64,000 nt of DNA from an uncultured Acidimicrobiales bacterium (lineage in GTDB: Bacteria; Actinomycetota; Acidimicrobiia; Acidimicrobiales; CATQHL01). The stretch covers positions 1,572 to 65,571 of the forward strand of contig OY282384.1 in NCBI GenBank assembly GCA_958295925.1, written 5' to 3'. The position numbers and the translations under genes are program-made. This document shows, piece after piece, positions 752 to 31,057 of this stretch (its first letter is position 1; every line of letters starts with the position of its first letter). Under the pieces are notes generated by a model. That model did not search any database and had not been told where the DNA came from. It saw only the letters and a list, made by a program, of their open reading frames with translations.

Positions 752-1227
752 CCAGCCCGACCCGGATAGACCTGGACAACCCCAAGGAAGTCCACCGACT
801 CTACCCGGAACAGGAGTTCAACCGACTGACCCCAGACCAGCAGGCCCAGCTGCTCCAACAGCTGCTCGACGACCTGACGAAAGAAGACAAGCTGGACCAG
901 TCCACCCTCTGGCTCACCGACCCCGGGCGAGTGGGCTACGCCGGCCCCCGCGGCACCTACCCGGAACCGCTGGTCCAAGCCGGAGCAGGCACCAGCTTCA
1001 GCGTCCGCAAGCTCTCCCCAATACTCTACGGCGGAGGCCACGACTCTCACAGCATCGGATATGCGCTGCCGAACAGCTGGGTCGACGACCGCTGGAGAGC
1101 CGTCAGCCCGCTGAACGACCTGCACCGGCACATCCCGGAGCTGCTGGAAGAACGTCGACCGCGCAGGGTGGAACTAGGCGTAGACCACCGCCCACCGAAG
1201 GAAGGAACCCCCACCCCAGGCAGGTAA
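742..1227 (+). CDS. hypothetical protein, family A copy 2
   Basis: ATG 742 inside track ORF 424..1227 (upstream part is Arg/Pro-rich off-frame junk); paralog of 305..751; overlaps previous stop by 10 nt. Confidence 0.65.
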   Translation: MELTSPTRIDLDNPKEVHRLYPEQEFNRLTPDQQAQLLQQLLDDLTKEDKLDQSTLWLTDPGRVGYAGPRGTYPEPLVQAGAGTSFSVRKLSPILYGGGHDSHSIGYALPNSWVDDRWRAVSPLNDLHRHIPELLEERRPRRVELGVDHRPPKEGTPTPGR

Positions 1228-4363: not shown

Positions 4364-4837
4364 ATGCCCGCACCGCGAAATACCGAAGCCCCGGCCCACT
4401 ACGAAGACATCCTGCACCAGTGGCCCGACTGCCCCGGCTGCCAGGCCGCACAGCCCATACCCTACGGCTGCTACGTATGCCGCCAGACCGACCGGCCCAG
4501 CGCGACCTGGTCCGCCTTCCATCCGGGAGCCTGGCTCTGCCGGGAATGCCGGAGCAGCGTCTACGCCGCCGACCCGGTGCGCTACCAGTTCGACTTGGAA
4601 AGCATCCTGGCGCTGCCCGACTTCGACCGCTTCCTGCAGGGCGCCGTCCCCCTGGGCCGGCAGCTCCGCGAGGAGCTGGAGAACCAGGCCCAGGGCTGCC
4701 ATACCTGCGGCAACGACAAGGTAGACAACAGCCACCGGCTGACCATCGCCGCCGGCGGCTATTGGCTCTGCCCCAATTGCGTCTATGCCATGTCGCTGGA
4801 GAACATCGCCCGCGCCGCCGGAGTGCCTACCAACTAG
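4364..4837 (+). CDS. Cys-rich (multi CxxC) protein
   Basis: TAAGGAGG SD, ATG 4364; CPGC, CYVC, CREC, CHTC, CPNC pairs. Confidence 0.6.
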   Translation: MPAPRNTEAPAHYEDILHQWPDCPGCQAAQPIPYGCYVCRQTDRPSATWSAFHPGAWLCRECRSSVYAADPVRYQFDLESILALPDFDRFLQGAVPLGRQLREELENQAQGCHTCGNDKVDNSHRLTIAAGGYWLCPNCVYAMSLENIARAAGVPTN

Positions 4838-4889
4838 GCCCCGGCCGGCCCCGGCAGGACCCAAACTAGATTCTCAGGAGGTGAACCCT

Positions 4890-5042
4890 ATGCCTACCCT
4901 AGCGCAACGGGAAGCTGCCGCCGCCCGCGTCCGGCAGTCGCAAGCCCAAGAGGAAAACGCCCGCCAGGGGCTTCTTCCCGGTTTGCCGCCGAGTTACACC
5001 AGACTTGGTGGGAACCAGTATTTTGGGAACCCAGTATTATAG
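4890..5042 (+). CDS. small hypothetical protein (50 aa)
   Basis: AGGAGG 4876-4881 + 8 nt + ATG 4890 (the optimal pattern in this window); its 3-prime half overlaps element copy at 4984 so the product is uncertain. Confidence 0.4.
   Translation: MPTLAQREAAAARVRQSQAQEENARQGLLPGLPPSYTRLGGNQYFGNPVL
4984..5003 (+). repeat. intergenic TTTCCCGGTT element, short copy
   Basis: gcccgccaggggc hairpin then cttcttcccggtttgccgccg. Confidence 0.45.
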
Positions 5043-5065
5043 AATTTCAGGAGGTGAGAACCATC

Positions 5066-5656
5066 ATGACTCAAGCAACTCTCAGCGGCGGGACCATCAC
5101 CGCGCCCGCCGGAACCAACGTCGTCGTCAATGGCCTCAACATCACCGTGCCCGAAGGCGGGACCGTCAGCTGGGGCGACCAAGCCGCCCAGGCCCCGGCG
5201 GCCTACCCGGGGGCGCAGCACGGCAGCTACCCGTGCCAGACCTTGCCCCGCGTCCAGCGGAACGGCGAAGTGAACCATCCCGGAGTCCACTGGTGCATCT
5301 ACGCCGAGGGCGAGGAGGACCGCATGGACGCCGGCAAGCCCTTCGCCAACCACGACGCCTGGGTCGCGGCCTTCGACGACCTGGTCCTGGACACCAAGAC
5401 CGCCGCCCCCGACGGGATTCATAATTTCACCCTGCGGGGCGACCGCGGCAAGCAGCACCACGGCATCGTGGTCAACAAGGGCCACATCGAGGCCGCCTTC
5501 GCCTGCCAGGCGATTTATATGGCCCACTGCCGGGACAACGACGTCAAGCAGGAGGCCAGCAAAGGCGAGCACCTGCTGAAGAAGTCCGGCTTCCTGCTGG
5601 AGAGAATCGAGTGGGACAGCCTCAAGGGCATCTTCGTCATCGAACTCGGCTGCTAG
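5066..5656 (+). CDS. hypothetical protein, family C copy 1
   Basis: AGGAGGTGAGAACC then ATG 5066 (GTG 5054 is part of the SD); shares APDGxHxF..HG(I/C)VV(N/K)(K/D)G..(I/F)xxL(E/T)WD with 5765 and 6239 genes. Confidence 0.65.
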   Translation: MTQATLSGGTITAPAGTNVVVNGLNITVPEGGTVSWGDQAAQAPAAYPGAQHGSYPCQTLPRVQRNGEVNHPGVHWCIYAEGEEDRMDAGKPFANHDAWVAAFDDLVLDTKTAAPDGIHNFTLRGDRGKQHHGIVVNKGHIEAAFACQAIYMAHCRDNDVKQEASKGEHLLKKSGFLLERIEWDSLKGIFVIELGC

Positions 5657-5764
5657 CCAGCCCCAGGCACCGGCCGCCCCTGGAGAGAGATTACAGCGCA
5701 ACGCTCTATTCCCTTCCCGGGGGCGGCCGCCGGCCCCAAATCTGCACACCAGGAGGTAAGAGTG

Positions 5765-6160
5765 ATGAAGCTCAGCCAATTCAAGCATGAAGTGATGCAA
5801 TGGTCCATATATATGCCCAGCGCCATGGACAACCTACCGAAGTACGGCACGGATAAGCAGTGGCGGGAGGCCTACGACGCCATCGACCTGGATTTGTCGA
5901 CCAACGCCCCAGACGGGAACCACCCCTTCGTCTTCGACGGCGGAGTGCCCGGCCGCTGTCACGGCTGCATCGTCGTCAAGGACGGCCAATTCGACGCCAT
6001 GGCCACCGCCGAGGCCATCCACCAGGCCAGCCTGGCCGAAAAGGAATCCCCCGGCTACAATGAGATGCTCGGCCACGTGGTGCCCTACCACCACCGTTTC
6101 ATCGAGGACCTGACCTGGGACCCGGAGACGGAACTCTTCACCGTGGGACTGGGGTCCTAG
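5765..6160 (+). CDS. hypothetical protein, family C copy 2
   Basis: AGGAGG 5751-5756 + 8 nt + ATG 5765; paralog of 5066 gene; stop TAG 6158 lies in a tandem repeat. Confidence 0.65.
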   Translation: MKLSQFKHEVMQWSIYMPSAMDNLPKYGTDKQWREAYDAIDLDLSTNAPDGNHPFVFDGGVPGRCHGCIVVKDGQFDAMATAEAIHQASLAEKESPGYNEMLGHVVPYHHRFIEDLTWDPETELFTVGLGS

Positions 6161-6192
6161 AGCCCTGGGGTCCTAGAGCCCTGGGGTCCTAG
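6149..6192 (+). repeat. perfect 16-nt tandem repeat, 2.75 copies
   Basis: CTGGGGTCCTAGAGCC at 6149, 6165 and partial at 6181; each unit contains TAG. Confidence 0.9.
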
Positions 6193-6238
6193 CCCAGCCC
6201 CCACAGGGCCATTCCGACAATCAGGAGGAACTAACCTT

Positions 6239-6811
6239 ATGAACAACGCCGAACTGAACCGGCTGCTGGCCCGTCCCACCCAGCTGATCTGGCCGGCCGT
6301 AAAAGTCGCCGGCTTCAGCGAATGGAACACCAGCGCCACCGAGTACGCCGCCGCCAAGCTGCATACCCTGACCGACGCCCCGCCGGGAGTCCACGAGTAC
6401 TATCACCAGACCGGCCGGGAAGACGAAGGCGAAGTACGCCACCAAGGCATCCTGGTCCAAGACAACGGCCACATAGAGCCCTGCTTCTCCATCGGGCAGA
6501 TCTACCGGGAGACCTACCAGCACCTGGTCGAGCACGCCTGGGCCGGCGCCACCGGCGACTACCTGGTCTGGCTGGCGATATATTACATCGACTGGAACCC
6601 GGAACAGCAGGCCTTCAAGGTCATGCTGGAGGCCGCCACCGGCGCGGAGCCGTGGGAACGGAAGCACGTCCGGGAGCAGCCCAACCGCAAGCTGGACCCC
6701 CGCATCAACCACCGGCTGCTGGACTACGCGAAATGGCCCAATGAGGCGCAGCGCCGCCGGCGGGAGTTGAACCTCCCGGCAGAGCTGATGGACGTGGAAT
6801 TCGTCCACTAG
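6239..6811 (+). CDS. hypothetical protein, family C copy 3 (longer C-terminus)
   Basis: AGGAGG + 10 nt + ATG; APPGVHEYY..RHQGILVQDNGHIEP..IDWNPEQQAFKVMLEA aligns to family C. Confidence 0.6.
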   Translation: MNNAELNRLLARPTQLIWPAVKVAGFSEWNTSATEYAAAKLHTLTDAPPGVHEYYHQTGREDEGEVRHQGILVQDNGHIEPCFSIGQIYRETYQHLVEHAWAGATGDYLVWLAIYYIDWNPEQQAFKVMLEAATGAEPWERKHVREQPNRKLDPRINHRLLDYAKWPNEAQRRRRELNLPAELMDVEFVH

Positions 6812-6922: not shown

Positions 6923-7714
6923 ATGCCGGAAGTGATAAACGACCTGCCTGCGAAGTTTCACCAGCGACTGTTCCAGGAAGACGTGACAGCAGTCCTGAAA
7001 CGCCTGCCCGACGCCTGCCTGGACGTAGTCTACGGCGACCCCGACTACAACGTCGGGATCAAGTATTCAGGCCATTCCTATACCACCGAGTGGCAGGAAT
7101 ACGTGGACTGGTACGTGGAACTGGCTACCCAGTGCCTGCGGGTATTGAAGCCTACGGGTAATTTATTCCTCATCAACTACCCGAAGCAGAACGCCTACCT
7201 CCGAGTCCTGGCCTTGGATAGATTGGCCCACGCGGTCCACGACTACGTCTGGGTCTTCAATACCAACGTGGGGCACTCGCCCCAGCGATTCACGACTGCG
7301 CACCGGTCAATCCTTCACGCGGTGAAGTCGCCGGACAACAACTGGCACAAGGACGCCGTGGCCCAGCCCTACCTGAACCCCCGGGACAAGCGCATCCAGA
7401 CGCGCATCGCCCAAGGCGAAACGGGCCGGATGCCCTACTCCTGGCTGAACTTCGAACTGGTCAAGAACGTCGCCAAGGACAAGACCGAGCATCCCTGCCA
7501 GATTCCGGAAGGCCTTTCGGAGTTATTGCTGAAGGCCGCCGCCCGGCCCGGCGACTCCGCTTTCATCCTATTCGGCGGCTCCGGCTCGGAGGTGCTGCAG
7601 GCAGAGCGACTAGGACTCACCTGGCTGAGCTGCGAACTCTCCACCGAGTTCTGTGAATTGATCGAAAACCGGCTGGCCAAGCAGCGTCAGCTGGAACGCA
7701 GCCGGCTGCTTTAG
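6923..7714 (+). CDS. DNA methyltransferase, beta-class N6-adenine/N4-cytosine type
   Basis: VVYGDPDYNV (DPPY-type motif IV) early, then HPCQIPEGL and FGGSGSE (SAM motif I region) near the C-terminus. Confidence 0.8.
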   Translation: MPEVINDLPAKFHQRLFQEDVTAVLKRLPDACLDVVYGDPDYNVGIKYSGHSYTTEWQEYVDWYVELATQCLRVLKPTGNLFLINYPKQNAYLRVLALDRLAHAVHDYVWVFNTNVGHSPQRFTTAHRSILHAVKSPDNNWHKDAVAQPYLNPRDKRIQTRIAQGETGRMPYSWLNFELVKNVAKDKTEHPCQIPEGLSELLLKAAARPGDSAFILFGGSGSEVLQAERLGLTWLSCELSTEFCELIENRLAKQRQLERSRLL

Positions 7715-12958: not shown

Positions 12959-13054
12959 CGCTGCCCCGCAGCCGGTTCCCATCCGAAACCCCGTGGAAGG
13001 AGAAGCGAACCCGGGAGCATAAAGGCAGCTACGCCTATTTAGGAGGTGAGAACC

Positions 13055-14764
13055 ATGACCGCCGCACGCCCGCGCCGCCGGCTCACGCCGGAACGCAGCC
13101 AACAGATACTCCAAGCTATGCAGGATAGCAAGAACCAAGCCAGCTACCAGCAGGAGCAGGAAGCCACCGAGGCCAGGAGCAGAGCCCAAGCATCGGCTCA
13201 GGCCGCCGCCCCGCCGGCGAAGCCCCGCACCCCGGGGCGAGGCGGCAAGTTCCTGCTTACCTCCGGCGTCGCCGCCGGCACCTGCGCCATAGTACTGGCC
13301 GGGTGGCTGACGCTGGCCAGCACCTTCGGTGGGAATGAACCGGAAAACTACGCGGCTATCGCCGACAACCCGTACTATGCCGCCGCAACGGCACCGCCCC
13401 AGGCCCCGGCCGCTGAGCTATGCCGCTACGGCGAGGAATGGGCTGCTTGCGCCGCGCCCACGCCGGAGACCACAGCACCCAGATACAGCGAACCGGAAAT
13501 GGGAAATCTGACCATCCACCCCGAGGTATGGAACGAAGGCATCATCACCGGTGAGTACCAGGCCGAGAGCCGTGCCCACAGCCCAGCACCGGACAACGAA
13601 CCTAAGCCGACCCAGGCAGAACCGGAAACGCCGGCAGAGGCAGCCCAGGCCCTTACATCCCTGGCCCAGGCTGAAACCGAAGACCCAGCCGCGCTGGAAA
13701 CGGCCGCAGAAGCCGCCCCAGAAGCCGCAGCGGAGACCACCCCGGTGGAGCTTCCCAGCAATGAGGGAACTACTCCAGAGACGACCCCGGAGTGGAACCC
13801 AGAGACCGATGCCAGCATCGACGTGACCCTGGTCACGGAAGTACCCGCCGAATGGCAAGAGCCTTTCACCGTCGCAGGCACGGCCGAAGAAACAGACAGC
13901 TATGCGCCGACCAGCGCCGTCAGCCAACCGGCCTACCTGGCCTACCTGGACCCCACAATGATAGAGGAGATCTTCGGCAACCCGGAGAAGAGGGACGGAG
14001 GAGAGGAGCCCCTATGCACCAAGGCCCAACCCGAGCACGTGGAAACACTGGTCACCAGCAAATCGGAAGTGGAGACCATCGTCACTGGGTTCCACTGCAA
14101 CCACAGCAGATACCTACAGCTAGGTAACGCCATTGCGCAGCTGGAAAGCATGCTCGGTAGAGCCTACCCTCTGAGCAAGACCGTTCTACTGAACACCCCC
14201 GCAGAGGGGCACGACACTTGCGGGTTCCTACCCCACCCAGACTACAATGTATATTCAGGCAACGTGGTTTGGGACAAGAGCACCATCGTGGTCCACACAA
14301 CCCGGCATGGAGCAGACACCAGCTGCGGAAGAATGGAAGCAACCATCATCCATGAGGTAGCGCACGCTTGGTTCCACGGAAACGAGCTCTGGTTCGATGA
14401 GGGAATGGCCGACCACTTGGAGCGCAAGCTCACCGAGACACGAGCCAGGCCGGTCTGCACCCAGTTCAAGAACCTAAAGGAGTTAGAACGAGCCCTCGAC
14501 GACGGAGAGGAAACCAGCAACTGCGAGTACTCCATGGGCGGCGCGCTCTTCGACGAGCTAGAAATGCACTTCCGGTCAAAGCGAGGAGCGAACTTCTACA
14601 CTCTGATGGGAGAACTAGCCCGCCAGACGGTCGAGAGCAGCAATCATGGCTGGCTGGACTACCGTAAAGGCAAAGCCAACCTCTGGATGGCAGATGGGAT
14701 GGATTCCAAGGCCCGCGAGATCATCGACAGATGGTGGGACGGAGACCCATACAAGCCCAGATAG
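13055..14764 (+). CDS. membrane-anchored protein with C-terminal HExxH (Peptidase_MA-like) domain, copy 2
   Basis: AGGAGGTGAGAACC then ATG 13055; TM FLLTSGVAAGTCAIVLAGWLTLA; acidic A/E/T/P linker; TIIHEVAHAWFHGNELWFDEGMADHLE. Confidence 0.7.
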   Translation: MTAARPRRRLTPERSQQILQAMQDSKNQASYQQEQEATEARSRAQASAQAAAPPAKPRTPGRGGKFLLTSGVAAGTCAIVLAGWLTLASTFGGNEPENYAAIADNPYYAAATAPPQAPAAELCRYGEEWAACAAPTPETTAPRYSEPEMGNLTIHPEVWNEGIITGEYQAESRAHSPAPDNEPKPTQAEPETPAEAAQALTSLAQAETEDPAALETAAEAAPEAAAETTPVELPSNEGTTPETTPEWNPETDASIDVTLVTEVPAEWQEPFTVAGTAEETDSYAPTSAVSQPAYLAYLDPTMIEEIFGNPEKRDGGEEPLCTKAQPEHVETLVTSKSEVETIVTGFHCNHSRYLQLGNAIAQLESMLGRAYPLSKTVLLNTPAEGHDTCGFLPHPDYNVYSGNVVWDKSTIVVHTTRHGADTSCGRMEATIIHEVAHAWFHGNELWFDEGMADHLERKLTETRARPVCTQFKNLKELERALDDGEETSNCEYSMGGALFDELEMHFRSKRGANFYTLMGELARQTVESSNHGWLDYRKGKANLWMADGMDSKAREIIDRWWDGDPYKPR

Positions 14765-15588: not shown

Positions 15589-16842
15589 ATGAAGAAAGAA
15601 AATGAACCGAAATTCCTTGCCGTGGACTTTTACTGCGGCGCCGGCGGAACCACCCGCGGGCTGAGCGACGCCGGTGGATACGTGATCGCCGGCGTAGACA
15701 AGGACCCGGCCTGCCGCCGCACCTACCAGGAGAACAACCCCAACTGGACACTCGACCGGGGAACCCCCGAATACCTAGAGATGGACATGTTCCCAGCAGC
15801 CCCAGACCATCCCGAGGGCCAGCAGGACGAAATCATGTCCGAACTCAACCGGCTACTCGGCCCAGCCAAAGAGAATCATCCGCAGCTCCCCCTGCTTTTC
15901 GCCATCTGCGCCCCGTGCCAATCCTTCACAAAGTATCCGCAGCCGCACATGTCGGAAGGGAGAACGCGGGCCCGGGCGACAGACAGCAGCCTGATCGCCC
16001 AGTCCCTGCCCTTCATCGAACGGTTCAAGCCCGAGATGATACTCTGCGAGAACGTAGCCGGCATCGAAAAGAGCAGGTACGCCGCAGTCTGGACCGACTT
16101 CATCGAGCAGCTAAAAGAGAAAGGGTACCGAGTGGGAACCAGCACCGTGTGCGCCGCCGACCACGGCGTCCCGCAGAACCGCAAGCGCTCCATCATAATG
16201 GCCGTCAAACGCAAAGACGGCGACGAGGCGAAGAACGAACCCATCGCAATGCCGCAGCCAACCGGAGAAGGCCGAAAGCCGACGGTGGCTGACGCCATAT
16301 CACACCTGCCGGCACTGCAAGCCGGGGAGAAAGACGAGAAACTAAGCAACCATGCGTGCCTGAACCTCTCGGAGACGAACAAGAGCCGACTACGCGCCCT
16401 CGCGCCCGGACAGCCGAACCACCTGCTCCCCGACGAACTGGCGCTCCCCTGCCACCGCCGGCTAGAGAAGAAAGGGAGAAAAGGATTCGAGGATCCCTAC
16501 ACCCGCCTGCGGCCGGACCGCCCGGCCCCGACGATAACGACGCGGTTCAACAGCGTGTCCAACGGGAGATTCGGACATTACGACCCGGAGCAGACGAGGG
16601 GACTATCCCTGCTGGAAGGAGCGCTGCTCCAATCCTTCCCAGAAGGATACCGGTTCCGCGGAGGAAGTGCGGAGACCGTCGCCCGGATGATCGGAAACTC
16701 AGTCCCGCCGAAGCTGGCAGCCAGCATGGCGGAGCACCTATGCGCCGCGTACGGCAAGAACCCGTCCCAGGAGAACCCATACGACGCCTGCGAGGCGGAA
16801 CCAAGGAGGACGCAATGCCTGAAGAGGGAAAAGAGACCATAG
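15589..16842 (+). CDS. dcm: DNA (cytosine-5)-methyltransferase
   Basis: Motifs I FYCGAGG, IV CAPCQSFT, VI LCENVAGI, VIII QNRKR, X GNSVPP. Confidence 0.95.
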   Translation: MKKENEPKFLAVDFYCGAGGTTRGLSDAGGYVIAGVDKDPACRRTYQENNPNWTLDRGTPEYLEMDMFPAAPDHPEGQQDEIMSELNRLLGPAKENHPQLPLLFAICAPCQSFTKYPQPHMSEGRTRARATDSSLIAQSLPFIERFKPEMILCENVAGIEKSRYAAVWTDFIEQLKEKGYRVGTSTVCAADHGVPQNRKRSIIMAVKRKDGDEAKNEPIAMPQPTGEGRKPTVADAISHLPALQAGEKDEKLSNHACLNLSETNKSRLRALAPGQPNHLLPDELALPCHRRLEKKGRKGFEDPYTRLRPDRPAPTITTRFNSVSNGRFGHYDPEQTRGLSLLEGALLQSFPEGYRFRGGSAETVARMIGNSVPPKLAASMAEHLCAAYGKNPSQENPYDACEAEPRRTQCLKREKRP

Positions 16843-17210
16843 AAGAAGCCGCAGACAGAGCGGCGAAGCGGATCGAGGAGCCCCCTGGAGACGACGGCAT
16901 GGACGCCGTGCTGCTCCGCGCGTTGGACGGAGGCGCGCTGGTAGGAGCACTGTGGCGAAACGCCGCGGACCAGGAAGCCGGGGCCGAGCCCGGGAAAACC
17001 AAGGACGCGAAAGGGAAGGAGCAAGGAGTGACAGGGAACGAGAACGACAACGGGAAGAAGGCGTCGCTGCCCGCGAAGGGGCTGCAGGCCCTGCTGGACT
17101 TGGCGGAAGGGTACGTCAGCGAGAACGGAGCCGAAGCTGGACGAAGATACGCCGACCCGGCCGAGCTAGAGAAGGCGATGAGGAACGCCGCCACGGCCTT
17201 GAAACGATAA
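16815..17210 (+). CDS. acidic hypothetical protein in the dcm-vsr operon
   Basis: AAGGAGG 16803-16809, ATG 16815 overlapping the dcm 3-prime end by 28 nt; 131 aa. Confidence 0.5.
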   Translation: MPEEGKETIEEAADRAAKRIEEPPGDDGMDAVLLRALDGGALVGALWRNAADQEAGAEPGKTKDAKGKEQGVTGNENDNGKKASLPAKGLQALLDLAEGYVSENGAEAGRRYADPAELEKAMRNAATALKR

Positions 17211-17223
17211 CTGCGAGGACGGA

Positions 17224-17652
17224 ATGACGGACTTCCTCACCCCGGAAGACCGCTCCCGGCTGATGTCCAAGATCAGAGGAAAGGACACCCGGCCAGAGAA
17301 AACCGTGCGCCAGCTCCTCTGGCACGCCGGATTCCGCTACCGGCTGAACGACAGGAAGCTGCCGGGAACCCCAGACCTGGCGCTAGCCCGATACCGCACC
17401 GCCGTCTTCGTCAACGGATGCTTCTGGCACCGCCACGACTGCCGGAAAGGCACGAAGCTCCCCAAGACAAACCGGCAGTACTGGCTGAAGAAATTCGCCG
17501 ACAACGCCGCGCGAGACGCCGCCAATCTCCGGATACTATCCCAGTACGGATGGACGACCACGGTGATCTGGGAATGCAGAATGGAAGAGGGGACGCAGCA
17601 CCTGCTGTTGGAGCTGTCCGAAAAGAGACGAAGGGAGAAGGACCGAACATGA
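17224..17652 (+). CDS. vsr: very short patch repair endonuclease
   Basis: RSRLMSKIRGKDTRPE..LPGTPDLALARYRTAVFVNGCFWHRHDC..TNRQYWLKKF..GWTTTVIWEC matches E. coli Vsr along its length. Confidence 0.93.
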   Translation: MTDFLTPEDRSRLMSKIRGKDTRPEKTVRQLLWHAGFRYRLNDRKLPGTPDLALARYRTAVFVNGCFWHRHDCRKGTKLPKTNRQYWLKKFADNAARDAANLRILSQYGWTTTVIWECRMEEGTQHLLLELSEKRRREKDRT

Positions 17653-19844
17653 CCACTGCGACACAACCAGAAATGCATGCTGCAGAGAGAAAGGACGTCG
17701 AGCTGCAGCTGCAGATACTGCCCAGAGCACTCACCGCCCTCGGGAAGGACTTGGTCACCGACGACATAGTCGCCATCACGGAACTGGTGAAGAACTCCTA
17801 CGACGCATTCGCTCAGGAAGTTCTCGTGAAGCTGCATATGGACGAGAACGGGGAACAAAGCCTGGAAATACGCGATGACGGTCTCGGGATGAACAGAAGG
17901 ACAATAGAAGACCAGTGGTGCAAGATCGGCACAGCCTACAAGAGAGAAAACCCCTGGGCAAGAAGGGCGGGAAAGACCCGCAGAGTATCAGGGAACAAAG
18001 GACTCGGCAGGCTTTCCATGGCCAGACTGGGCAACAGGATGACGATGGTGACCCAAGCTCTCGGAGAGAAATGCTGGGAGGTGGAAGCAAACTGGGCGAC
18101 GATCGCCGGGTCGGCAGACATGCCGACGAACGGAATCACTCTGCGAGAGGCGCGGGGTGGAAGCCCATTCGACACATCCGGCACCCGGATAACAATACAA
18201 GAACTGAGCAGCGAATGGAGCGAAGGGAAGCGGCAGGAACTGCGCGAGAACCTACGCCGGCTAATATCCCCCTTCGCAGAGGCGTCCGACTTCGGAATCA
18301 CGCTGGACCTCGCAGGAGAACAAGAAGAAGGAAAGCTGGAGGCCCAGACGTTCCTCCAAACACCCAAATACGCAATCCGCGGCGAGGCGGACAGCCAGGG
18401 AAACATAAGAGCGGAATATCGACGCCAACCGGAGGGATCAAGCGGAATCACAGCAGCGGCGAAGGTAACACTCTCCTGGAGCCAGGTATGGGAGGAGGAG
18501 ACCAAGAGGGAGCGCTGGCAGTTCGAACACGACAGGGAGACCGCAAAATGCGGAGGGTTCTCCTTCGAAATCCGCGCATGGGACATAGACACCGAGGGAA
18601 CGAAGGAGATAGCGGAGGAATACGGGCTGGCGCGAAGGGACATCCGAGAGGCCATAAGAGCCCACAAGGGCATATCCATATACAGAGACGGAGTGCTGGT
18701 ACTCCCGAAATCGGACAGAAACGCCGACTGGCTAGGCATGAACCTACGCCGGGTGAGCAATATCGGGAGAAGGCTGAGCACCAGCCAGATCGTAGGATGC
18801 ATCTCCATAACCGAAGACGGCAACCCAAGGATCCAGGACACGACGGACAGAGAACGCCTCTCCGCCAACAGGGAAACGGAAGAGTTCGAATCACTCGTGA
18901 AATACGTTCTTTACGAGGTTGAGAAGCGTCGGAACGAACAACGGGCGGAGAGAAGAGCGGCGGCGCCAGAGAGGACGATGACCCACCTCTTGGAGAACGT
19001 ATCCGCAAGCCGTCTGATCGAGGAGACGGAGGCGCTAGCGAGAGATGGAGAGAAAGCCGAAGCAGTAGTGCCCCTAGTCAGAGAGCTGGAGACAGCGCTA
19101 GCAGACAGCCGGGAGGAGATCGAAAGGAGATTGTCATACTACAGCCGGTTAGCAGCCATAGGCACGATAGCGGAAACGTTAGTCCACGAAATCAGGAACA
19201 GGACGACCGCCGTCGGACGATTCCTCAAAACCGCGGAGAAGCTACTCCAAGCACATCCCGACGACCGGGCGGAGCAGGAAAGAAAGCGGGCAGAGAAGTC
19301 GGTCCGGATCCTCGAGGACATGGCGGACCGGTTCGCACCGATGGCGAATCGGAAGTTCAAGCGCGGGACGAGACGCTCGATCCTGGAGGAGAGAATGGAG
19401 ACATGCCTAGACATGAGACAGGGAGAGTTGAAGGCCCACGGCATCACATGGTCCCGACCAGAAGGAAGGACGGAAGCGCGAGTAGACCCCGGTGAGTTGG
19501 ACATCATCTTGGACAACATGATCGCCAACGCAACGTACTGGCTACGGCACTGCGAAAATCCAACCCCACGAATGGAATTCTCCATCCAGGAGTGCGAAGA
19601 CCCAGAGAGAGCCGAATTATGGCTGCATGACAACGGCCCAGGCGTAGCGGAAGAAGACAAGAGGAGAATATTCCTAGCCGGGGTCTCCGGCAAGCCGGAC
19701 GGAATCGGCATGGGACTGACGACAGCCGCCGAGATAGTCGCCGCCTACGGCGGGAGCATGAGAGCTGAGTGCCCAGGCAAATTAGGCGGGGCATCCTTCA
19801 GATTAGACCTGCCACTAGGCAGGGAAGGAACAAAGAAAGAATGA
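17649..19844 (+). CDS. dual-GHKL protein: N-terminal MORC/HATPase_c_3-like ATPase fused to C-terminal histidine kinase
   Basis: ATGA overlap with vsr. N-terminal: ELVKNSYDA, RDDGLGM, GNKGLGRLS. C-terminal: H-box ETLVHEIRNRTTAV, N-box LDNMIANATYW, G1 DNGPGV, G2 GIGMGL. Confidence 0.85.
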   Translation: MTTATQPEMHAAERKDVELQLQILPRALTALGKDLVTDDIVAITELVKNSYDAFAQEVLVKLHMDENGEQSLEIRDDGLGMNRRTIEDQWCKIGTAYKRENPWARRAGKTRRVSGNKGLGRLSMARLGNRMTMVTQALGEKCWEVEANWATIAGSADMPTNGITLREARGGSPFDTSGTRITIQELSSEWSEGKRQELRENLRRLISPFAEASDFGITLDLAGEQEEGKLEAQTFLQTPKYAIRGEADSQGNIRAEYRRQPEGSSGITAAAKVTLSWSQVWEEETKRERWQFEHDRETAKCGGFSFEIRAWDIDTEGTKEIAEEYGLARRDIREAIRAHKGISIYRDGVLVLPKSDRNADWLGMNLRRVSNIGRRLSTSQIVGCISITEDGNPRIQDTTDRERLSANRETEEFESLVKYVLYEVEKRRNEQRAERRAAAPERTMTHLLENVSASRLIEETEALARDGEKAEAVVPLVRELETALADSREEIERRLSYYSRLAAIGTIAETLVHEIRNRTTAVGRFLKTAEKLLQAHPDDRAEQERKRAEKSVRILEDMADRFAPMANRKFKRGTRRSILEERMETCLDMRQGELKAHGITWSRPEGRTEARVDPGELDIILDNMIANATYWLRHCENPTPRMEFSIQECEDPERAELWLHDNGPGVAEEDKRRIFLAGVSGKPDGIGMGLTTAAEIVAAYGGSMRAECPGKLGGASFRLDLPLGREGTKKE

Positions 19845-20893
19845 GGATACTCTTCGTCGAGGACGAGCCGGAGAATATCGAGACGGTGCAAGAGCGCCTA
19901 CGCGAGGAAATGAGGGGAATTCAGATGAGGACCTGCGGGTTCAAAGAAGCGCAGGCGGAAATCAAGACCTTCGCTCCAAGCCTGGTAGTCCTCGACCTGA
20001 TCGGAGAGGAGGAAGAGCCAGAGGGCTTGGGAACACAGGAATACATCTGGGCATACCATTTCTGCCCGATCGTCATATACTCGGCCAAAGCCGAGATGGC
20101 ACGAAAGGAGCACCCCTTCATAAGGGAAGTCAAGAAGGGAACCGGGAGCGAAGAAAAGGTGCTGGCAGCAGTCAAAGGATTCAAGCCGCACATCGACGCG
20201 CTCGAGGAAACGAGACGACGCGTAAACAGAGAACTGACGGAATCCATGAAGGCGACAGCCCCATGGGCCTTCCAGAACCTCGAGGATGAAGAGGAGAAAA
20301 AGGACTACATAGCCAGAGCAGGAAGAAGGCGGCTGCCTGAGATGGCTGCCGAGGAAGAGGACGACAAACCCCAACCAGGATGGGAGCAATACATACACCC
20401 ACCGCGCCCGGGGGAACTGCTGACCGGAGACATAATACGCGAGACCGGCAGCGACGAGAATGCGGCAACCAGCTACCGAGTAATCTTGACGCCGTCATGC
20501 GACCTCAGCAAGCACGGAGGCGCCAAAGCAAAAACGGACAGGGTGCTGACAGCACGCTGCGTACCAACGAAACAAGCACTAAAGCGAGAAGGAACGAAAT
20601 TCAACGCAGGGGAGATCCGATCCCGCCTGAACCAAGGCTACTGGAGAACGACGCTCCCGCTCCCAAGCATGAAAGGGGCATTCCCGCCGATGGCAGTCGA
20701 CTTCCGGCAGATGGAAACGCTCCCCATAGAGGACCTAGAGGACGGGAAAGCTTTCGAAAGAATAGCCAGCCAATACAGCCCCTTCAGAGAGCTGGTATCA
20801 GAGGCGGCAGCCGCCTACGTCGGCAGAGCGGGACTGCCCGACAGGGATACGGGAGCATGGGCAAAGGAGATACTAGATGAACCAACCAAATAA
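19841..20893 (+). CDS. response-regulator receiver domain fused to an uncharacterised C-terminal domain
   Basis: ATGA overlap with the kinase gene; MRILFVEDEPEN..SLVVLDLIG..PIVIYSAK = CheY-like REC; about 220-aa C-terminus (VILTPSCDL..) with no motif I recognise. Confidence 0.8.
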   Translation: MRILFVEDEPENIETVQERLREEMRGIQMRTCGFKEAQAEIKTFAPSLVVLDLIGEEEEPEGLGTQEYIWAYHFCPIVIYSAKAEMARKEHPFIREVKKGTGSEEKVLAAVKGFKPHIDALEETRRRVNRELTESMKATAPWAFQNLEDEEEKKDYIARAGRRRLPEMAAEEEDDKPQPGWEQYIHPPRPGELLTGDIIRETGSDENAATSYRVILTPSCDLSKHGGAKAKTDRVLTARCVPTKQALKREGTKFNAGEIRSRLNQGYWRTTLPLPSMKGAFPPMAVDFRQMETLPIEDLEDGKAFERIASQYSPFRELVSEAAAAYVGRAGLPDRDTGAWAKEILDEPTK

Positions 20894-20924
20894 GAGCAAC
20901 TTCCCGCGTGAAGAAGGAGAAGAG

Positions 20925-22238
20925 ATGATCAGAGGCAGAGAGAGAGCAGAAATGCCCCAACCCCCCACCCAAGACCAAATCCAATTCCTCTGGGAGTACC
21001 TGAAGCACATCGAAGCCAAAGGCTGGTCCTACCGGGACCTGGACAGCTGGGAAGTCGACGATGACCCAGAGGTCCTCCTGGGCCAATACCTGGCCTACCG
21101 CCAGAGCGAAGCCCGCAACGCCGACCCGGCCCAGATACCCCAAGCCCCCGGCCTGCGGGTCCAGGACACCCATCTCATCCTGGACTTCCCCGACGGCTCC
21201 GTCTGCATCGAAAGGAAGGAAGGAACCGGCCCGCCCACCAACCCGGCAGTACCCAAGCCGCCGAGGACCGCGCCGGCGCCCCTAACCCAATGGTCCCAGC
21301 CCCGGCCCAATCCAATCAGCGGCATCGAAAAGGCCAAGCAAGTCTTCCACCAAACTCTCGACCGAATGCAGGACCTGCAGATCCTGGCCGGCCGCCCCGA
21401 CCCCCACGACCCCCTGGCCGAAAAGATGACGGTTGAGAGGGACAAGGCCAAACAGCAAGCGGCCGAACTCATCGCCAGCTGGGCCACCCACCACTGGGAG
21501 GAGACCGAACTGTCGGAAGAACAGCAGAAGGAATTCGTCCGCATCGACCTCTGCCGGGACTGCGGCCAGAAACGCAAGATAGTCCGCATGAGCATGCGGG
21601 AGAACCTGAAGCCTGACCAACGCCACGGGCTCATCAATACGAAGGGCGCCACGAAGAGCGCCACGAAGAACGCCGTAACCGACCCGGGGAGCGCCGACCA
21701 AGGCTGGCGGGAGTTTCACTGTCCCGGGCCCACCCCGGTGGAAGAGCGGAAAGAAGTGGAAACCGAAATCGTATTCGACGACCGGGAGCCGGCCGCCCGG
21801 GCCAACCTGGATGCGATGACCCGCAACCTCCTGCGCGGCACCCGGCAACTCCGAGAAGACCTGGACATAGACCTGGACCTAGACGCCGAGGCCGGCAGAC
21901 AGCACGAGCTGATGAGCAGACGCCACTGGAGCGTGCCGGAGCCTGAGAACACGCCGTCCAGCCAGGAACCCCGGCGACAACCGGTCCGAGTGGCCGTAAC
22001 CACCGGCGACGCCGCCGCGGACCAAGGGCCGAACCCGGAGACCAGCCAAGCGCTCCAAGCCCTGGCCGGAGTGCCCGGAGTGGAAGTGGTCACCGACCTC
22101 AGCAAGCTGGTGGAGCGGTTCAACGCCGACCGGAAGGCCCAAGGCCTGGAGCCAATAGAACCAGTGCGGCCCCTGCCCCGGAAGGACGACCAGGACAGCG
22201 ACACCACCGCGGAACCCAACGAACAGAACGGGAAATAA
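20925..22238 (+). CDS. hypothetical protein
   Basis: GAAGGAG 20913-20919, ATG 20925 (track start 20877 overlaps the previous gene); contains CRDCGQK..HCPGP. Confidence 0.55.
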   Translation: MIRGRERAEMPQPPTQDQIQFLWEYLKHIEAKGWSYRDLDSWEVDDDPEVLLGQYLAYRQSEARNADPAQIPQAPGLRVQDTHLILDFPDGSVCIERKEGTGPPTNPAVPKPPRTAPAPLTQWSQPRPNPISGIEKAKQVFHQTLDRMQDLQILAGRPDPHDPLAEKMTVERDKAKQQAAELIASWATHHWEETELSEEQQKEFVRIDLCRDCGQKRKIVRMSMRENLKPDQRHGLINTKGATKSATKNAVTDPGSADQGWREFHCPGPTPVEERKEVETEIVFDDREPAARANLDAMTRNLLRGTRQLREDLDIDLDLDAEAGRQHELMSRRHWSVPEPENTPSSQEPRRQPVRVAVTTGDAAADQGPNPETSQALQALAGVPGVEVVTDLSKLVERFNADRKAQGLEPIEPVRPLPRKDDQDSDTTAEPNEQNGK

Positions 22239-26489: not shown

Positions 26490-26921
26490 ATGTTTATTAC
26501 ATACACAGTCGATACCGACTACACGAAACCATTCCAAACAACGGTATGGTGCCACCCAGGGAACAAGAAACCCGAGGGCGGACACACCATCATTTACTGC
26601 GCGCACCACCCAGGCGGACCACCCTCAATGCTATATGATGTAGCCGGCATCACAGGAACCAACCCAAGAGTAACTAAGGGTGAGGAAACAGAGCTACGCG
26701 CCCACGGGATAGGAACAATAAGGATAAATTACAAGCGAAGCGAGACTGCTCTACGGTCACCCATCACCTCAATGCACGTATTCAGACAGTTCTCGAGAAC
26801 CAAGAGATGGTGGATAAAACCTTGCAAACAAACACCGCCATGCGGCCTGCAAGAAATAGTCACCCAAATAATCGACTACCAACACAGGGAGCCGGAAAGA
26901 CGCGGCCAGCGACCACAATGA
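26490..26921 (+). CDS. hypothetical protein (lower-GC gene)
   Basis: Track ORF 143 aa; visibly more AT-rich than its neighbours. Confidence 0.5.
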   Translation: MFITYTVDTDYTKPFQTTVWCHPGNKKPEGGHTIIYCAHHPGGPPSMLYDVAGITGTNPRVTKGEETELRAHGIGTIRINYKRSETALRSPITSMHVFRQFSRTKRWWIKPCKQTPPCGLQEIVTQIIDYQHREPERRGQRPQ

Positions 26922-27264: not shown

Positions 27265-27343
27265 GAAAGGGCAAGACTGGACGATGAAGCCGCTCAAGCT
27301 TCGAGTCCAGCGATGCATGCACAGACCGAGGCTGCGTTTTGAG

Positions 27344-27362
27344 GGTCTTACCTCTACGTTTC
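27344..27362 (+). repeat. left arm of a 19-nt perfect inverted repeat
   Basis: GGTCTTACCTCTACGTTTC, reverse complement of 27580-27598; sits in the 27-nt loop of the GCTGCG/CGCAGC hairpin. Confidence 0.9.
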
Positions 27363-27418
27363 GCGCAGCAGCGGTTGCCAAGTAAGGAGTGCGAAACCGA
27401 ACTTGGCGGGGCGGTAGG

Positions 27419-27458
27419 AACCCCGAAGGGCGAAAATAAACCCTTCGGGGTTTTTCTT
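27419..27458 (+). terminator. rho-independent terminator
   Basis: AACCCCGAAGGG / CCCTTCGGGGTT 12-bp stem, 10-nt loop, TTTTT. Confidence 0.8.
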
Positions 27459-27579: not shown

Positions 27580-27598
27580 GAAACGTAGAGGTAAGACC
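27580..27598 (+). repeat. right arm of the 19-nt inverted repeat, covering an SD and abutting ATG 27599
   Basis: GAAACGTAGAGGTAAGACC followed directly by ATG 27599-27601. Confidence 0.9.
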
Positions 27599-27639
27599 AT
27601 GCGACTACGCTGCAAAGCGTCAAACTTAACAATCCCCCA

Positions 27640-28190
27640 CAACCTCCCCGGTGAATCGAGCGCCGCCTCAGGCAGGGCTTCCGACCTTCAAAGGAACACG
27701 CCCAGCGAAAAGGCGGAGGAGTTCCAACTCAACCCAGCAACTGGAGCAGCAACTGGACCAGCGACTGGAGCAGCAACTGGAGCAGCAACTGGAGCAGGGC
27801 GAGCCGAATTGGCGATAATCCGCTCCAGTCGCGCAACTCACCGGGCAAATAGCACACCGCCAGGGAATTCAGCTACGAAAGTCGGCCGCGACGAAGAGCG
27901 GCTGGAGCACTGGAGCGATGGAGCAGCAATTACGAGTCGAATCTTCCCGGGAGTGGAAGAAGAGGAGGAAGAAGAGAATCTCTTCTCTCTATTCACATTA
28001 GCACCTGATCAGATCAGGATCGACCCCGAAACTCCCGCTCCAGTGCTCCAGCGCTCCAGAGACCCTCCGCTCCGCTCCAGGAAACCAGGGAACGTACCGC
28101 CCCGCACCTACCCCCGCAGCAACAACAGAATAGAAAAGCCCCAGCGACCAGGCACGGTCACCGGGGCGAAACCAAGAATAAAGGTGGCAA
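27640..28190. other. origin-of-replication-like iteron region
   Basis: Direct CTGGAGC: 5 x 12-nt units at 27735-27794, then 27902, 27910, 27919. Inverted GCTCCAG at 27822, 28037, 28045, 28053, 28074. Purine tract with hairpin 27970-27986 and palindrome CCTGATCAGATCAGG 28004-28018 lie between them. Immediately upstream of the primase-helicase gene. Confidence 0.55.
27735..27794 (+). repeat. 12-nt tandem repeat x5
   Basis: CAGCAACTGGAG x5 with variants CAGCAACTGGAC and CAGCGACTGGAG. Confidence 0.9.
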
Positions 28191-28191
28191 A

Positions 28192-28470
28192 ATGGTACAG
28201 CATCAGAACTCCCTTGACAACCCCCTGGCCGAGACGCCAGCAGGACAACCAGAGGAAAACCCGACGACCGGGGCGGGAGGCAGGCCCGCCCGCCCGACAG
28301 CCCGCACGGTAGCCGAGGCCCACAGCCGCGCCCGCTGGCTGATCACCGAGAACAAGACACCGGCCTTCGGCTGGATCCACCCCAGAGCGGCCGCGGTCCG
28401 TCCCCCGTCCTGCGAACACGTAACGGTCAGCGCGCAATTCAAGGTCACCGCCAACACCCCGCGCGCGTAG
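28192..28470 (+). CDS. small hypothetical protein upstream of, and in frame with, the primase gene
   Basis: AAGGTGG SD, ATG 28192; 92 aa; ends TAG 28468-28470 in the same frame as the downstream gene. Confidence 0.45.
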   Translation: MVQHQNSLDNPLAETPAGQPEENPTTGAGGRPARPTARTVAEAHSRARWLITENKTPAFGWIHPRAAAVRPPSCEHVTVSAQFKVTANTPRA

Positions 28471-28494
28471 CTCACCCACCAGGAGGCAATCGAC

Positions 28495-30456
28495 CTGGTC
28501 AGAGAGCTGAAGGCCAGAGGCCGTCCGGCAGCCCCCGCCTACTGCCACTCCAGCGTGAACCACACCATCGACCAGGACAATCTGGGCTTCAATTTTTTGG
28601 ACCTGGACAACGGGAGCCGGGACGACCCCGACGGCCTGGGCGCGGAATGCTTCCGCCAGGTCATCAATACCTTCCTGGAACGGTGGCCCGACGCCCCCAT
28701 AGCAGAAAGCCTCTCCGGCAACGGACGCTGCCACATCCTCCACAATGCCGACCCGAAGGACCGAGCCGCCTGGAGCAACGACAAGAAGCAAACCTACATC
28801 GCCCACGGCGCGCCGGAGTGGAAGGTGGAATTCTGGGACCCCTACGGGCAGGGACGATACCGAATCTTCACCGACCGCTGGCTGAACGGCGACGCCGACC
28901 AGGCGCCCCTGCCTACGATCACGCACACCGAATTGAGAGAGTTCTTCCAGACCATCCTCGCCCAGCTCTGGCGCCCCGAGCCGCCAAAGCGGCCGGTAGG
29001 AAGGCCGCCGGCGGCCGACCCCGACATCCCCTACCCCGATGGAACCCACCTGGCTCAGACCGAGCAGGGTGCAGCGCTGCGGGTGGCCCAGCGCCAGCTG
29101 GAACAGGAACGACCCATGGTCATGCTGGACGACGGAACCTGCTACATCGCCCGAGACAGCGGACTGCTGGTCCAAATCCGAACCGACCAGCCCCTGGGCG
29201 CCGGCTCCCGGCTCTTCGCCAGCGAAATCAGGAAAGCCAATCACGCGGCAACTCAGGAATTCACCGAAGACCGCAGCGAAGCCGAACTCCCGACCTATCG
29301 GCATTACCAGGACCAATTCATCACCTGGGCCGACTCCCGCCCAGCCAACTTTCCGGATAAAGTGCTGCGCCACCTCACGATACTAGCCGAGGACGAAGCG
29401 GAGCACCCTCAGCTGATCTGGCACCAACAGAACAGAGCCCCGCTCACTCAAGCCAACCTGAACCCGCAGCCGCCGAAGGATTCACTGTACCCGCTGGCCG
29501 ACGGCCGGATCTACTCCACCGCCCGCAGCGACGTACTCAGCCCGGAGGAGGTCTACCACGACCTCCACACCGACGACGTGGCGCGGCTCACCCGTACCTG
29601 GGTGCCCGGCGCCTTCCAGCCGGACGCGGGCAAGTGCCAGCCCCAGGGGCAAACCTACGCCGCTTGGCTGCTCCAAGCATGGGCCGACAGCTTCAAGCTC
29701 CTGGTCTTCGCCTCCACCCGCCCCCGCAAGGAATGCGGCTTCAGCATCATGATCGGACACCCCGACCGCGGAAAAACCACGATGCTGGACATCTGGCAGA
29801 CGCTGGGGCTCTGCAACAAAACCAACCAACCGCTCCGGGACCAGAGCCGCAGCGGCATCCGACCCTTCGACTACCTGGCCGCCGCCCTCTGCAAGGAGCG
29901 ACTGGTGTTTCTGGACGAACTGGCCACTCCCCTGGAGGAGAATCCCAAGCCGATCCCCAGCGGGCCGCTGAAGGCCCTCACCGGACAGACCACGCTGACG
30001 TACGAGACCAAGTTCAAAGACGAAGTAACCCGCACCCGGCGGGGCAACCTGCTGGGCGTGGGAAACCACCCGCTGCTTTTAGACGCCGCGAACCCGGCCA
30101 TCCGTGAGAGGCTGCTCTTCATCCCGGAACCGAAGGAAGTGGAAGCCCTGAAGCCCCACCACGGCCTGCCGCCGGGACTCCGCAACACCGCCGAGTGCCT
30201 GGACGCGATACTGGACGCCTACCTCCAAGAAGCCAGCCGGCAGAGCAAGAGCAAGAACGACAGCCCGCCCTTCACCGCAGCCAGCTCACGAGAGTCCCGT
30301 AAAATCCGCGCCCAGCACGAAGCCCACTACGCCGCCTGGCAGGAGCAACAGCGCAGGAAACAGGGCCGCAACGGAAAGGCGCCCACCCCAGAGAAAGCAC
30401 CCGGAAAAGAGACCAGAACCAAAACAACCGGTACCAGGAAGCAGGCCAGCCGGTAA
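28495..30456 (+). CDS. replicative primase-helicase (AEP prim-pol N-terminus + SF3/P4-D5-type helicase)
   Basis: FNFLDLDNG (DxD) and SLSGNGRCHILH (SxH); Walker A GHPDRGKTT, Walker B LVFLDE. Start uncertain: AGGAGG 28481-28486 + 8 nt + CTG 28495; track start GTG 28555 has no SD. Confidence 0.8.
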   Translation: MVRELKARGRPAAPAYCHSSVNHTIDQDNLGFNFLDLDNGSRDDPDGLGAECFRQVINTFLERWPDAPIAESLSGNGRCHILHNADPKDRAAWSNDKKQTYIAHGAPEWKVEFWDPYGQGRYRIFTDRWLNGDADQAPLPTITHTELREFFQTILAQLWRPEPPKRPVGRPPAADPDIPYPDGTHLAQTEQGAALRVAQRQLEQERPMVMLDDGTCYIARDSGLLVQIRTDQPLGAGSRLFASEIRKANHAATQEFTEDRSEAELPTYRHYQDQFITWADSRPANFPDKVLRHLTILAEDEAEHPQLIWHQQNRAPLTQANLNPQPPKDSLYPLADGRIYSTARSDVLSPEEVYHDLHTDDVARLTRTWVPGAFQPDAGKCQPQGQTYAAWLLQAWADSFKLLVFASTRPRKECGFSIMIGHPDRGKTTMLDIWQTLGLCNKTNQPLRDQSRSGIRPFDYLAAALCKERLVFLDELATPLEENPKPIPSGPLKALTGQTTLTYETKFKDEVTRTRRGNLLGVGNHPLLLDAANPAIRERLLFIPEPKEVEALKPHHGLPPGLRNTAECLDAILDAYLQEASRQSKSKNDSPPFTAASSRESRKIRAQHEAHYAAWQEQQRRKQGRNGKAPTPEKAPGKETRTKTTGTRKQASR

Positions 30457-30482: not shown

Positions 30483-31005
30483 ATGAGCAACGATCTCAGA
30501 ACCTACCAGGACACGCCCCTGGAAGAGTTGAGCATAGCGATGCAAGGCGCCGGCGCCAGGGGCAGAATGGTGAGCAACGAAGCCCGCTTCTACATCGACT
30601 GGGCCGGCGGCTGCCACGTCACCAGCCCGAGCACCGGCAACGACCCGCCGCTGGCAGTGCGAACCAACTCCGTCTCCGGCAAGACCGGCGCCTACTACTA
30701 CGCCTGCGAAAGGGAAGCACTGGACACGGTCGACGCCCTGCTCAACTGGACGCCAGCCAGAAACTCGGCCAGAACGCCAGCCAGGAACGGCGAACCCAAG
30801 GAGAAGACAAGACAGACCACCCCGAGGCACACCCCGGCCCGCCGGCGGCGGAGTAACCCACGCCGGCATCTGCCCCCAGTGCCAGGGGCCTTCCTACGCC
30901 AGGAACAAGCTCTGCGCGCCTTGCCTGAACCGGAACCGACTGGCCAAGTACACCCAACTGCTAAAAGACCTGGAACAAGAAAGAAGCCGGCCAACCGGCA
31001 GCTAA
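30483..31005 (+). pseudogene. hypothetical gene with a frame discontinuity and a zinc-ribbon C-terminus
   Basis: Frame of ATG 30483 looks coding to about 30840 then becomes RRRRSNPRRH junk. The +1 frame has no canonical (ATG/GTG/TTG) start and reads GGGVTHAGICPQCQGPSYARNKLCAPCLNRNRLAKYTQLLKDLEQERS to TAA 31003-31005. Confidence 0.4.
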
Positions 31006-31057
31006 GCACCATAAGTAAAGAAAAGCCATAAGCGGCACCCACCCGTAAAATAGCCGC

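Follow-up and report, generated by a model that had tools for sequence, protein, structure and literature searches.

Mirrored iteron arrays around an AT-rich core form a putative replication-origin-type site upstream of an AEP-primase/SF3-helicase gene

Introduction

The replication origins of SaPIs contain 6-12 short iterons and an AT-rich centre, with at least two opposed iterons on each side (PMC9371898). Their initiator, Rep or Pri-Rep, is a self-loading helicase that binds the iterons and is thought to load as two hexamers (PMC9371898). The SaPI/PICI origins are the closest described system to the site presented here.

Comparable arrangements exist in other replicons. The ori and crr of P4 consist of octamer repeats in direct and inverted orientation, which are recognised by alpha, a fused primase-SF3 helicase. 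At site II of the SV40 large T antigen and at the papillomavirus E1 site, inverted short repeats nucleate two head-to-head hexamers beside an easily melted tract. The iterons of theta plasmids, by comparison, are 17-22 bp long, stand in tandem and in one orientation, and go together with a winged-helix Rep and usually with DnaA boxes.

In this study we analysed a stretch of 64 kb (in the following termed the window) belonging to a contig of 643,545 bp. A preliminary description of this DNA had proposed that opposed arrays of the heptamer CTGGAGC, located in front of a primase-helicase gene, are the replication origin of the element.

Results

CTGGAGC occurs in 28 exact copies in the 64-kb window, and 11 of them are found inside 340 bp (27741-28080). 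For a stretch of this length about 0.08 copies would be expected, and the accumulation is therefore far beyond chance. The copies form an auxiliary direct array with 12-nt phasing and a dyad with 8-nt phasing (Table 1). The direct array reached a score of 112 in TRF. Instead of the five CTGGAGC units described before, it contains four exact copies on the + strand (27741, 27765, 27777 and 27789) and the variant CTGGACC at 27753; the array as such and its phasing were confirmed. Similarly, the three units of the left dyad arm consist of two exact copies (27902 and 27910) and the variant ATGGAGC at 27918, and they are spaced by exactly 8 nt, not by 8-9 nt. The complement GCTCCAG is present on the + strand at 27822, 28037, 28045, 28053 and 28074, exactly where the preliminary description had placed it (at 27822 and four times in 28037-28080). 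The inverted repeat 27901-27917/28036-28052 has arms of 17 nt with 100% complementarity and extends to 33 nt at 79%. Around the centre there are thus 3 + 3 (+1) mirrored CTGGAGC units, compared to the at least two opposed iterons per side of a SaPI origin. The dyad site lies 131 nt upstream of the start of the primase-helicase gene at 28192.

As described earlier, a purine tract with a small hairpin and a palindrome holding two GATC sites are located between the arrays. The tract comprises 24 nt (27955-27978) and the hairpin spans 27970-27986. The palindrome CCTGATCAGATCAGG has a length of 15 nt (28004-28018), and a third GATC, not mentioned before, abuts it. The three GATC sites at 28007, 28012 and 28018 in this part of the spacer (28004-28021) span 11 nt and are clustered more tightly than any others in the window, where the next tightest cluster spans 81 nt. 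No 40-mer within ±2 kb is less stable than the spacer core (about 27960-28000, 37.5% GC), which belongs to the top 0.07% of the window in this respect. The dyad accordingly has an AT-rich and easily melted centre.

Table 1. Coordinates of the features in the window and of the clear dyads at homologous loci
Locus	Feature	Position	Strand	Details
Window	Promoter-like sequence P1	27235-27264	+	TTGACA-18-TAGACT, TG-extended; 10/12 in consensus scan; putative function
Window	Candidate small RNA (about 188 nt), P1 to terminator	27271-27458	+	fold z = -4.45; putative
Window	Intrinsic-terminator-like hairpin	27419-27457	+	12-bp stem, then T run
Window	Promoter-like sequence P2	27494-27521	+	TTGACA-16-TAAAAT, 11/12; faces arrays and primase gene
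Window	Right arm of perfect 19-nt inverted repeat	27580-27598	+	covers GAGG Shine-Dalgarno-like motif, abuts ATG 27599
Window	Auxiliary direct array	27735-27797	+	(CAGCAACTGGAG) x5.2, 12-nt phasing; CTGGAGC core shared with dyad
Window	Lone inverted CTGGAGC copy	27822-27828	-	from motif count
Window	Dyad, left arm	27901-27925	+	3 iterons, 8-nt phasing: CTGGAGCA CTGGAGCG ATGGAGCA
Window	Dyad, spacer	27926-28035		110 nt; 48% GC vs 61% in window
Window	Dyad, right arm	28036-28060	-	3 inverted iterons, 8-nt phasing
Window	Extra inverted copy and half-copy	28069-28080	-	GCTCC GCTCCAG
Window	AEP primase/D5-type SF3 helicase, putative initiator	28192-30456	+	one gene, in-frame amber 28468-28470
Window	Conserved downstream partner gene	30483-31031	+	53% identical to gene after L001 homologue
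L001	Dyad	6432-6492 / 6604-6664		arms 61 nt, 100%; GTTGCG x3; spacer 111 nt
L004	Dyad	6941-7008 / 7134-7201		arms 68 nt, 90%; TTGCTTAACAAGGG (14-mer) x2; spacer 125 nt
L005	Dyad	813-891 / 971-1022		50 nt, 84% (813-862 / 972-1021); 9-nt units x~8, x~6; spacer 79 nt
L006	Dyad	5431-5488 / 5605-5662		arms 58 nt, 98%; AAACGGGG x3; spacer 116 nt
L007	Dyad	767-796 / 880-916		17 nt, 94% (767-783 / 900-916); GTGGCGT x4, 7-8 nt; spacer 83 nt
L009	Dyad	1622-1661 / 1750-1789		arms 40 nt, 93%; GGGGA units; spacer 88 nt

Downstream of the dyad, the preliminary description had listed two separate products, starting at 28192 and 28495. Instead, we found one gene that is interrupted by an amber codon. An exhaustive HMMER search returned 19 relatives of the primase-helicase, most of which extend about 100 residues beyond the N-terminus of ORF 28555..30456. 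The ORF 28192..28470, lying in the same frame, aligns with this N-terminal extension (48% identity to P0002, E = 7e-12). In a tblastn search with P0002 a single segment crosses the stop codon (28321-30351, E = 1.5e-162), the 84 nt following TAG 28468-28470 have a gene-like composition, and TAG is otherwise a normal stop codon. On this sequence evidence, 28192-30456 is a single gene carrying a nonsense codon, with its true start at 28192. At the position of the TAG, inside the primase fold, six homologues have an invariant Trp (TPxTW[LV]T). The stop codon could be due to a genuine mutation, or it could be read through or result from a sequencing error; the module may be inactive unless one of the latter two applies.

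Three observations led us to consider a reassignment of TAG: the alignment of the amber codon with Trp, the rank of TAG as the most frequent stop codon of the window (28/55 genes), and the common frame of four genes at 4364-6811. We discarded this idea because TAG does not occur within long genes and the gaps that follow a TAG have the composition of non-coding DNA. The four predicted genes at 4364-6811 are consecutive and separated only by TAG codons; this run is probably due to chance rather than to recoding, the gaps between the genes being non-coding in composition.

The primase-helicase (P0001) is a singleton cluster from NCBI/ENA. Its AEP motifs FLDLD and SGNGRxH and its Walker A motif DRGKT are conserved across the homologues, in line with an AEP primase fused to an SF3 helicase. 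The protein matched phrog_1156 (PHROG 'DNA primase') at 7.6e-12 and reached 27.5 bits against DUF5906, just below the cut-off of 27.6. A Foldseek search with its AF2 model (pLDDT 81.5) returned ASFV PrimPol, mpox E5/vaccinia D5 and the SaPI5 primase-helicase with E-values of 1e-10 to 1e-12; the SaPI5 Pri-Rep 7ola (E 1e-10, 429-473 aligned columns) was outscored by D5, E5 and ASFV PrimPol. Thereby, dyad, stability and protein identity agree with the earlier picture of opposed iteron arrays around an easily melted core beside a prim-pol/SF3 gene. Word-indexed protein searches matched the primase-helicase to itself alone, homologues being detected only by the exhaustive HMMER search, and 11 aligned homologues diverged too strongly for pattern scans to be applied. 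No close relatives of the locus were present in the phage DNA collection, in viral_contigs or in genome_contigs, nor were any found by a protein-pattern search of metagenome_contigs. The gene following the primase-helicase shows its 53% identity to L001 10141-10860 over 119 aa; it has no family assignment and is a possible replication partner.

A comparison with related elements had been suggested as a check of the origin proposal. For this purpose we took the DNA flanking ten homologues (24-44% identity to the window protein); the upstream sequence was usable at nine of them. The same architecture was found upstream of these distant homologues: clear dyads precede the gene at six of the nine loci (Table 1), with spacers of 79-125 nt and at distances of 111-1336 nt, and partial or weaker dyads are present in L003 and L010. 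In L011 no dyad was found in the upstream gap of 190 nt. The iteron sequence is different at every locus, as would be expected of co-evolving initiator/site pairs. An AT-rich, TATA-like spacer core is present in five of the six clear dyads, whereas in L004 the GC content of the spacer is not below that of the locus. In the high-GC loci L005 and L007 the spacer core is among the 0.02-0.04% least stable 40-mers; the spacers of the two low-GC relatives are not unusually unstable. No convincing alignment of the relatives' spacers was obtained, the common theme being a loose one of purine and pyrimidine tracts. Like the window with its 12-nt array, L006 and L007 have an auxiliary direct array beside the dyad.

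A blind scan for at least three copies of a 6-mer within 45 nt together with at least three reverse-complement copies within 300 nt gave a single hit in each of five sequences (the window, L001, L005, L006 and L007), and every hit is located upstream of the gene. The remainder of the 131 kb gave no hit, and 0.0 sites were expected from Markov resamples. The genes are co-oriented across the dyad in L001, and in L004, L006 and L009 the dyad lies in a divergent gap. The only gene constantly associated with the dyad across the loci is the primase-helicase. The recurrence upstream of distant homologues is the strongest argument for a functional cis-element tied to the primase-helicase.

Mirrored arrays of CTGGAGC/GCTCCAG with 8-nt phasing were also observed at 820-1010 of an unrelated metagenome contig of 1.1 kb (L008, JGI Ga0079224_101148183). 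Its spacer is GC-rich, its base composition is ordinary and there is no gene context to the right. This may be a chance convergence of the motif.

Two promoter-like sequences, a candidate small RNA and a terminator-like hairpin precede the arrays (Table 1). As P2 is located upstream of the arrays, these would be transcribed in the window. The segment 27344-27362 of the candidate RNA is perfectly complementary to 27580-27598, and this pair of 19-mers is unique in the window (0.02 expected). Duplex folding of the whole candidate RNA with the leader was no different from that of shuffled sequences. At gathering thresholds the window had no Rfam match, and relaxing the search of the region to E <= 1 brought up no meaningful one. 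By analogy with P4 CI and P1 c4, the RNA 27271-27458 could be an antisense regulator encoded on the same strand as its target. Another possibility is that the arms 27344-27362 and 27580-27598 flank an invertible promoter segment; neither a target-site duplication nor a nearby recombinase was seen.

The + strand of the window is composed of 34% C, 27% G, 27% A and 12.7% T (third-codon T 5%), the AT skew ranges from +0.2 to +0.48, and nearly all genes are on the + strand. Between 26467, the end of the last well-scoring gene, and ATG 28192 there are 1.7 kb of low coding potential, the largest such gap of the window bar one that holds a minus-strand gene. At the beginning of this gap, a 143-aa ORF (26490-26921) has an atypical codon-position composition with a third-position A of 0.38, and it matched no family; it may be a gene that was acquired recently, or not a gene at all.

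A skew minimum or maximum had been expected at 27.6-28.2 kb, but none was found there within the 64-kb window. The GC skew is negative and the AT skew positive on both sides, the cumulative skew is monotonic, and neither a change of skew sign nor a switch of gene orientation occurs at the site (64 of 643 kb examined). Nothing here points to a bidirectional origin for the 643-kb replicon as a whole, and a unidirectional or secondary origin is compatible with these data. The replicon may be a giant phage, a plasmid-like element or of another kind.

Further observations concern the window as a whole. ORFans make up most of its genes; the encoded proteins also include an Mrr-ResIII helicase (1777 aa) and at least four DNA methyltransferases. 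The sole stretch with positive GC skew (16000-21000) coincides with an 808-aa double HATPase gene (17418-19844) and is possibly a foreign insertion. A tRNA-Arg(tct) of 95 nt, called by ARAGORN on the - strand at 13581-13675, lies inside the + strand ORF 13046-14764 and is probably a false positive. Other tandem arrays of the window are a perfect 16-nt repeat (x2.8, 6149-6192) straddling the stop codon of ORF 5762..6160 and the following gap, and a 12-nt repeat (x3.6, 63957-64000) that is cut by the end of the window; an inverted partner array is lacking in both cases.

Discussion

The arrays need not be an origin. They would merely reflect coding sequence if ORF 27527/27599..28312, or the 55-aa ORF 27651..27818 with its QQLE repeats, encoded a repeat protein, and a conserved protein of this kind had been named in advance as evidence against an origin. 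The frame of the longer ORF is indeed open over 237-261 codons, a GAGG motif is found 6 nt ahead of ATG 27599, and the repeat period of 12 is divisible by 3. However, ORF 27599..28312 exhibits no codon-position signature (third position A.33, C.33, G.22, T.12, compared to C.47-.51 and T.04-.05 in the real genes of the window), and its codon log-odds score is negative, whereas the primase gene scores +0.4 to +0.6 per codon. It matched no Pfam or PHROG family and no homologue among 5.8 billion proteins; as even the self-hit was absent, the ORF is uncalled in the source's own annotation. Furthermore, it overlaps the true primase start in another frame. Long spurious ORFs are to be expected since all stop codons begin with T and the + strand is T-poor: calculated from a strand with 12.7% T, about one ORF of this length would occur by chance per window. 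The long ORF is spurious and the array region non-coding, and we consider the probability of a repeat protein to be negligible. Alternatively, the arrays might act as RNA, namely as a structured 5' leader of the primase mRNA starting from P2, in which the stem 27901-27925/28036-28060 regulates translation or stability. P2 (11/12) is located upstream and no other promoter was seen before 28192, the leader folds with z = -4.3 and forms a long stem, and the candidate small RNA is complementary to the leader start. In L004, L005, L006, L007 and L009, however, the best promoter lies between dyad and gene, so that the dyad is outside the mRNA and the conserved element is therefore a DNA site, not a leader RNA. 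Moreover, the arms consist of tandem repeats that are perfect over about 60 nt in some relatives, which is untypical of regulatory RNA stems, and Rfam gave no match. A regulatory leader seems highly improbable to us.

Among DNA functions, an operator or looping site has to be weighed, at which a repressor or activator (e.g. the small HTH protein of the relatives) would control the promoter of the replication operon, with replication starting elsewhere. Four relatives have a small HTH gene with a strong promoter directly downstream of the dyad, between it and the primase gene (L001 7747-7938, L005 1139-1378, L006 5839-5996, L007 1107-1286), the HTH proteins of L005 and L007 being related to each other. 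In L006, extra iteron copies are located just upstream of the HTH promoter, and origins and operators often overlap. This reading is nevertheless unlikely. In the window, as in L003 and L004, no HTH gene separates the dyad from the primase gene, and none of the window's proteins is homologous to these HTH proteins. The repeats that overlap the HTH promoter of L001 (TTATACTTTTG x2) are unlike the iterons of the L001 dyad, which is located 1.3 kb and two genes away. In addition, 3-8 tandem units of 7-9 nt mirrored around an unstable core typify oligomeric initiators, not dimeric HTH operators. Another arrayed DNA site, i.e. a partition centromere, a packaging (pac/cos) or a recombination site, is very unlikely. 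Plasmid centromeres also carry arrayed short repeats, and the dyad of L006 lies in the gap between the packaging and the replication module; yet the genes next to the site in the window include no par, terminase or recombinase gene, and the primase-helicase is the sole constant neighbour of the dyad across the loci.

We favour, with moderate confidence, the reading that 27735-28080 is a replication-origin-type binding and melting site of the adjacent AEP-primase/SF3-helicase gene. The element is real and, by prediction, probably a functional or recently functional site of origin type. For the 643-kb replicon it may serve as the main or as a secondary origin, or it may be an origin that was disabled recently. 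Of the original proposal of a replication origin of this element, the origin-type architecture was strengthened by its recurrence in the relatives; the skew test did not support the proposal, and the initiator gene carries an amber codon.

Which protein binds the repeats, the melting of the core and a start of replication at this site we infer as follows. Initiator subunits would recognise the CTGGAGC iterons. The most likely binder is the primase-helicase itself because it is the sole gene constantly associated with the dyad, but given the HTH gene in four relatives it could also be a protein other than the helicase. Two oligomers (hexamers) would then assemble on the two opposed 3x8-nt arrays, and the purine/pyrimidine core of low stability between them (about 27955-28000) would be opened. 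Subsequently, the helicases would load outward and the fused primase would make the first primers. The 12-nt direct array might serve as an auxiliary or regulatory binding array, e.g. as recruitment enhancer or for copy control. A far-reaching version of this model, which we regard as a long shot, is that the dyad is the single unidirectional origin of an extrachromosomal element of about 0.64 Mb. The extreme one-strand composition (T 12.7%, nearly all genes co-oriented) would follow from it, and firing would be gated by the antisense small RNA 27271-27458 pairing with the leader 27580-27598, as in P4/P1 immunity, together with amber read-through at the invariant Trp.

If confirmed, the site would provide an origin architecture for an uncharacterised clade of AEP-primase/D5-like helicases, whose elements are phage-like and range from 37 kb (L006) to at least 119 kb (L001), in addition to the 643-kb contig. 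The architecture, at least three iterons of 7-9 nt, a meltable spacer of about 80-125 nt and mirrored iterons, could then help to locate origins in metagenomic phages and giant elements by a rule that is independent of sequence. Furthermore, it would yield sets of natural iteron/initiator specificity pairs and minimal replicons for hosts without genetic tools. Even so, the general understanding of replication start would be unchanged, as this is most likely an ordinary kind of origin element in a new primase-helicase family.

Compared to known systems, the site shares with the origins of the theta plasmids F, P1, pSC101 and R6K the repeated initiator sites beside an AT-rich unwinding element. 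A theta-plasmid iteron origin of the Rep_3/RepA type was rejected: the iterons are not long and direct, but 7-8 nt long and mirrored, DnaA boxes are absent from 26.4-28.6 kb, and no Rep family is found among the neighbouring genes. The core origins of the SF3 viruses resemble the site in having inverted short repeats next to an easily melted tract. SV40 and papillomavirus, however, are eukaryotic viruses, their origin-binding domains are unrelated and their origins are more compact (about 64 bp). The 8-nt-phased inverted arrays and the 12-nt direct array can be set beside ori and crr of P4, where the second cis region of direct repeats (crr) could correspond to the 12-nt array, a putative equivalence. 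Also, the candidate small RNA recalls the RNA-based control upstream of the P4 replication gene. In contrast to this likeness, the site geometry is unlike that of P4, and the primase is of the AEP type and not of the Toprim type as in alpha. TIGR01613, the P4-family primase C-terminal region, is matched so weakly (16.7 bits versus a cut-off of 108.7) that the protein does not fall into this family.

With respect to SaPIs, several details differ. The site is located immediately downstream of the rep ORF in SaPIs, whereas here and in the relatives it lies upstream of the gene. The iterons of SaPIs comprise 5-6 nt, those of the present site 7-8 nt at a strict phasing of 8 nt. In addition, the spacer is longer here (about 110 nt), and there is an extra direct array phased by 12 nt. 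No winged-helix iteron-binding domain was identified in the primase-helicase, for which iteron binding is predicted. Nevertheless, the site has in common with SaPI origins two opposed groups of short iterons that flank an AT-rich centre beside the initiator gene, iteron sequences that differ between elements, and a primase-helicase as putative initiator, with the SaPI5 Pri-Rep 7ola among its fold matches.
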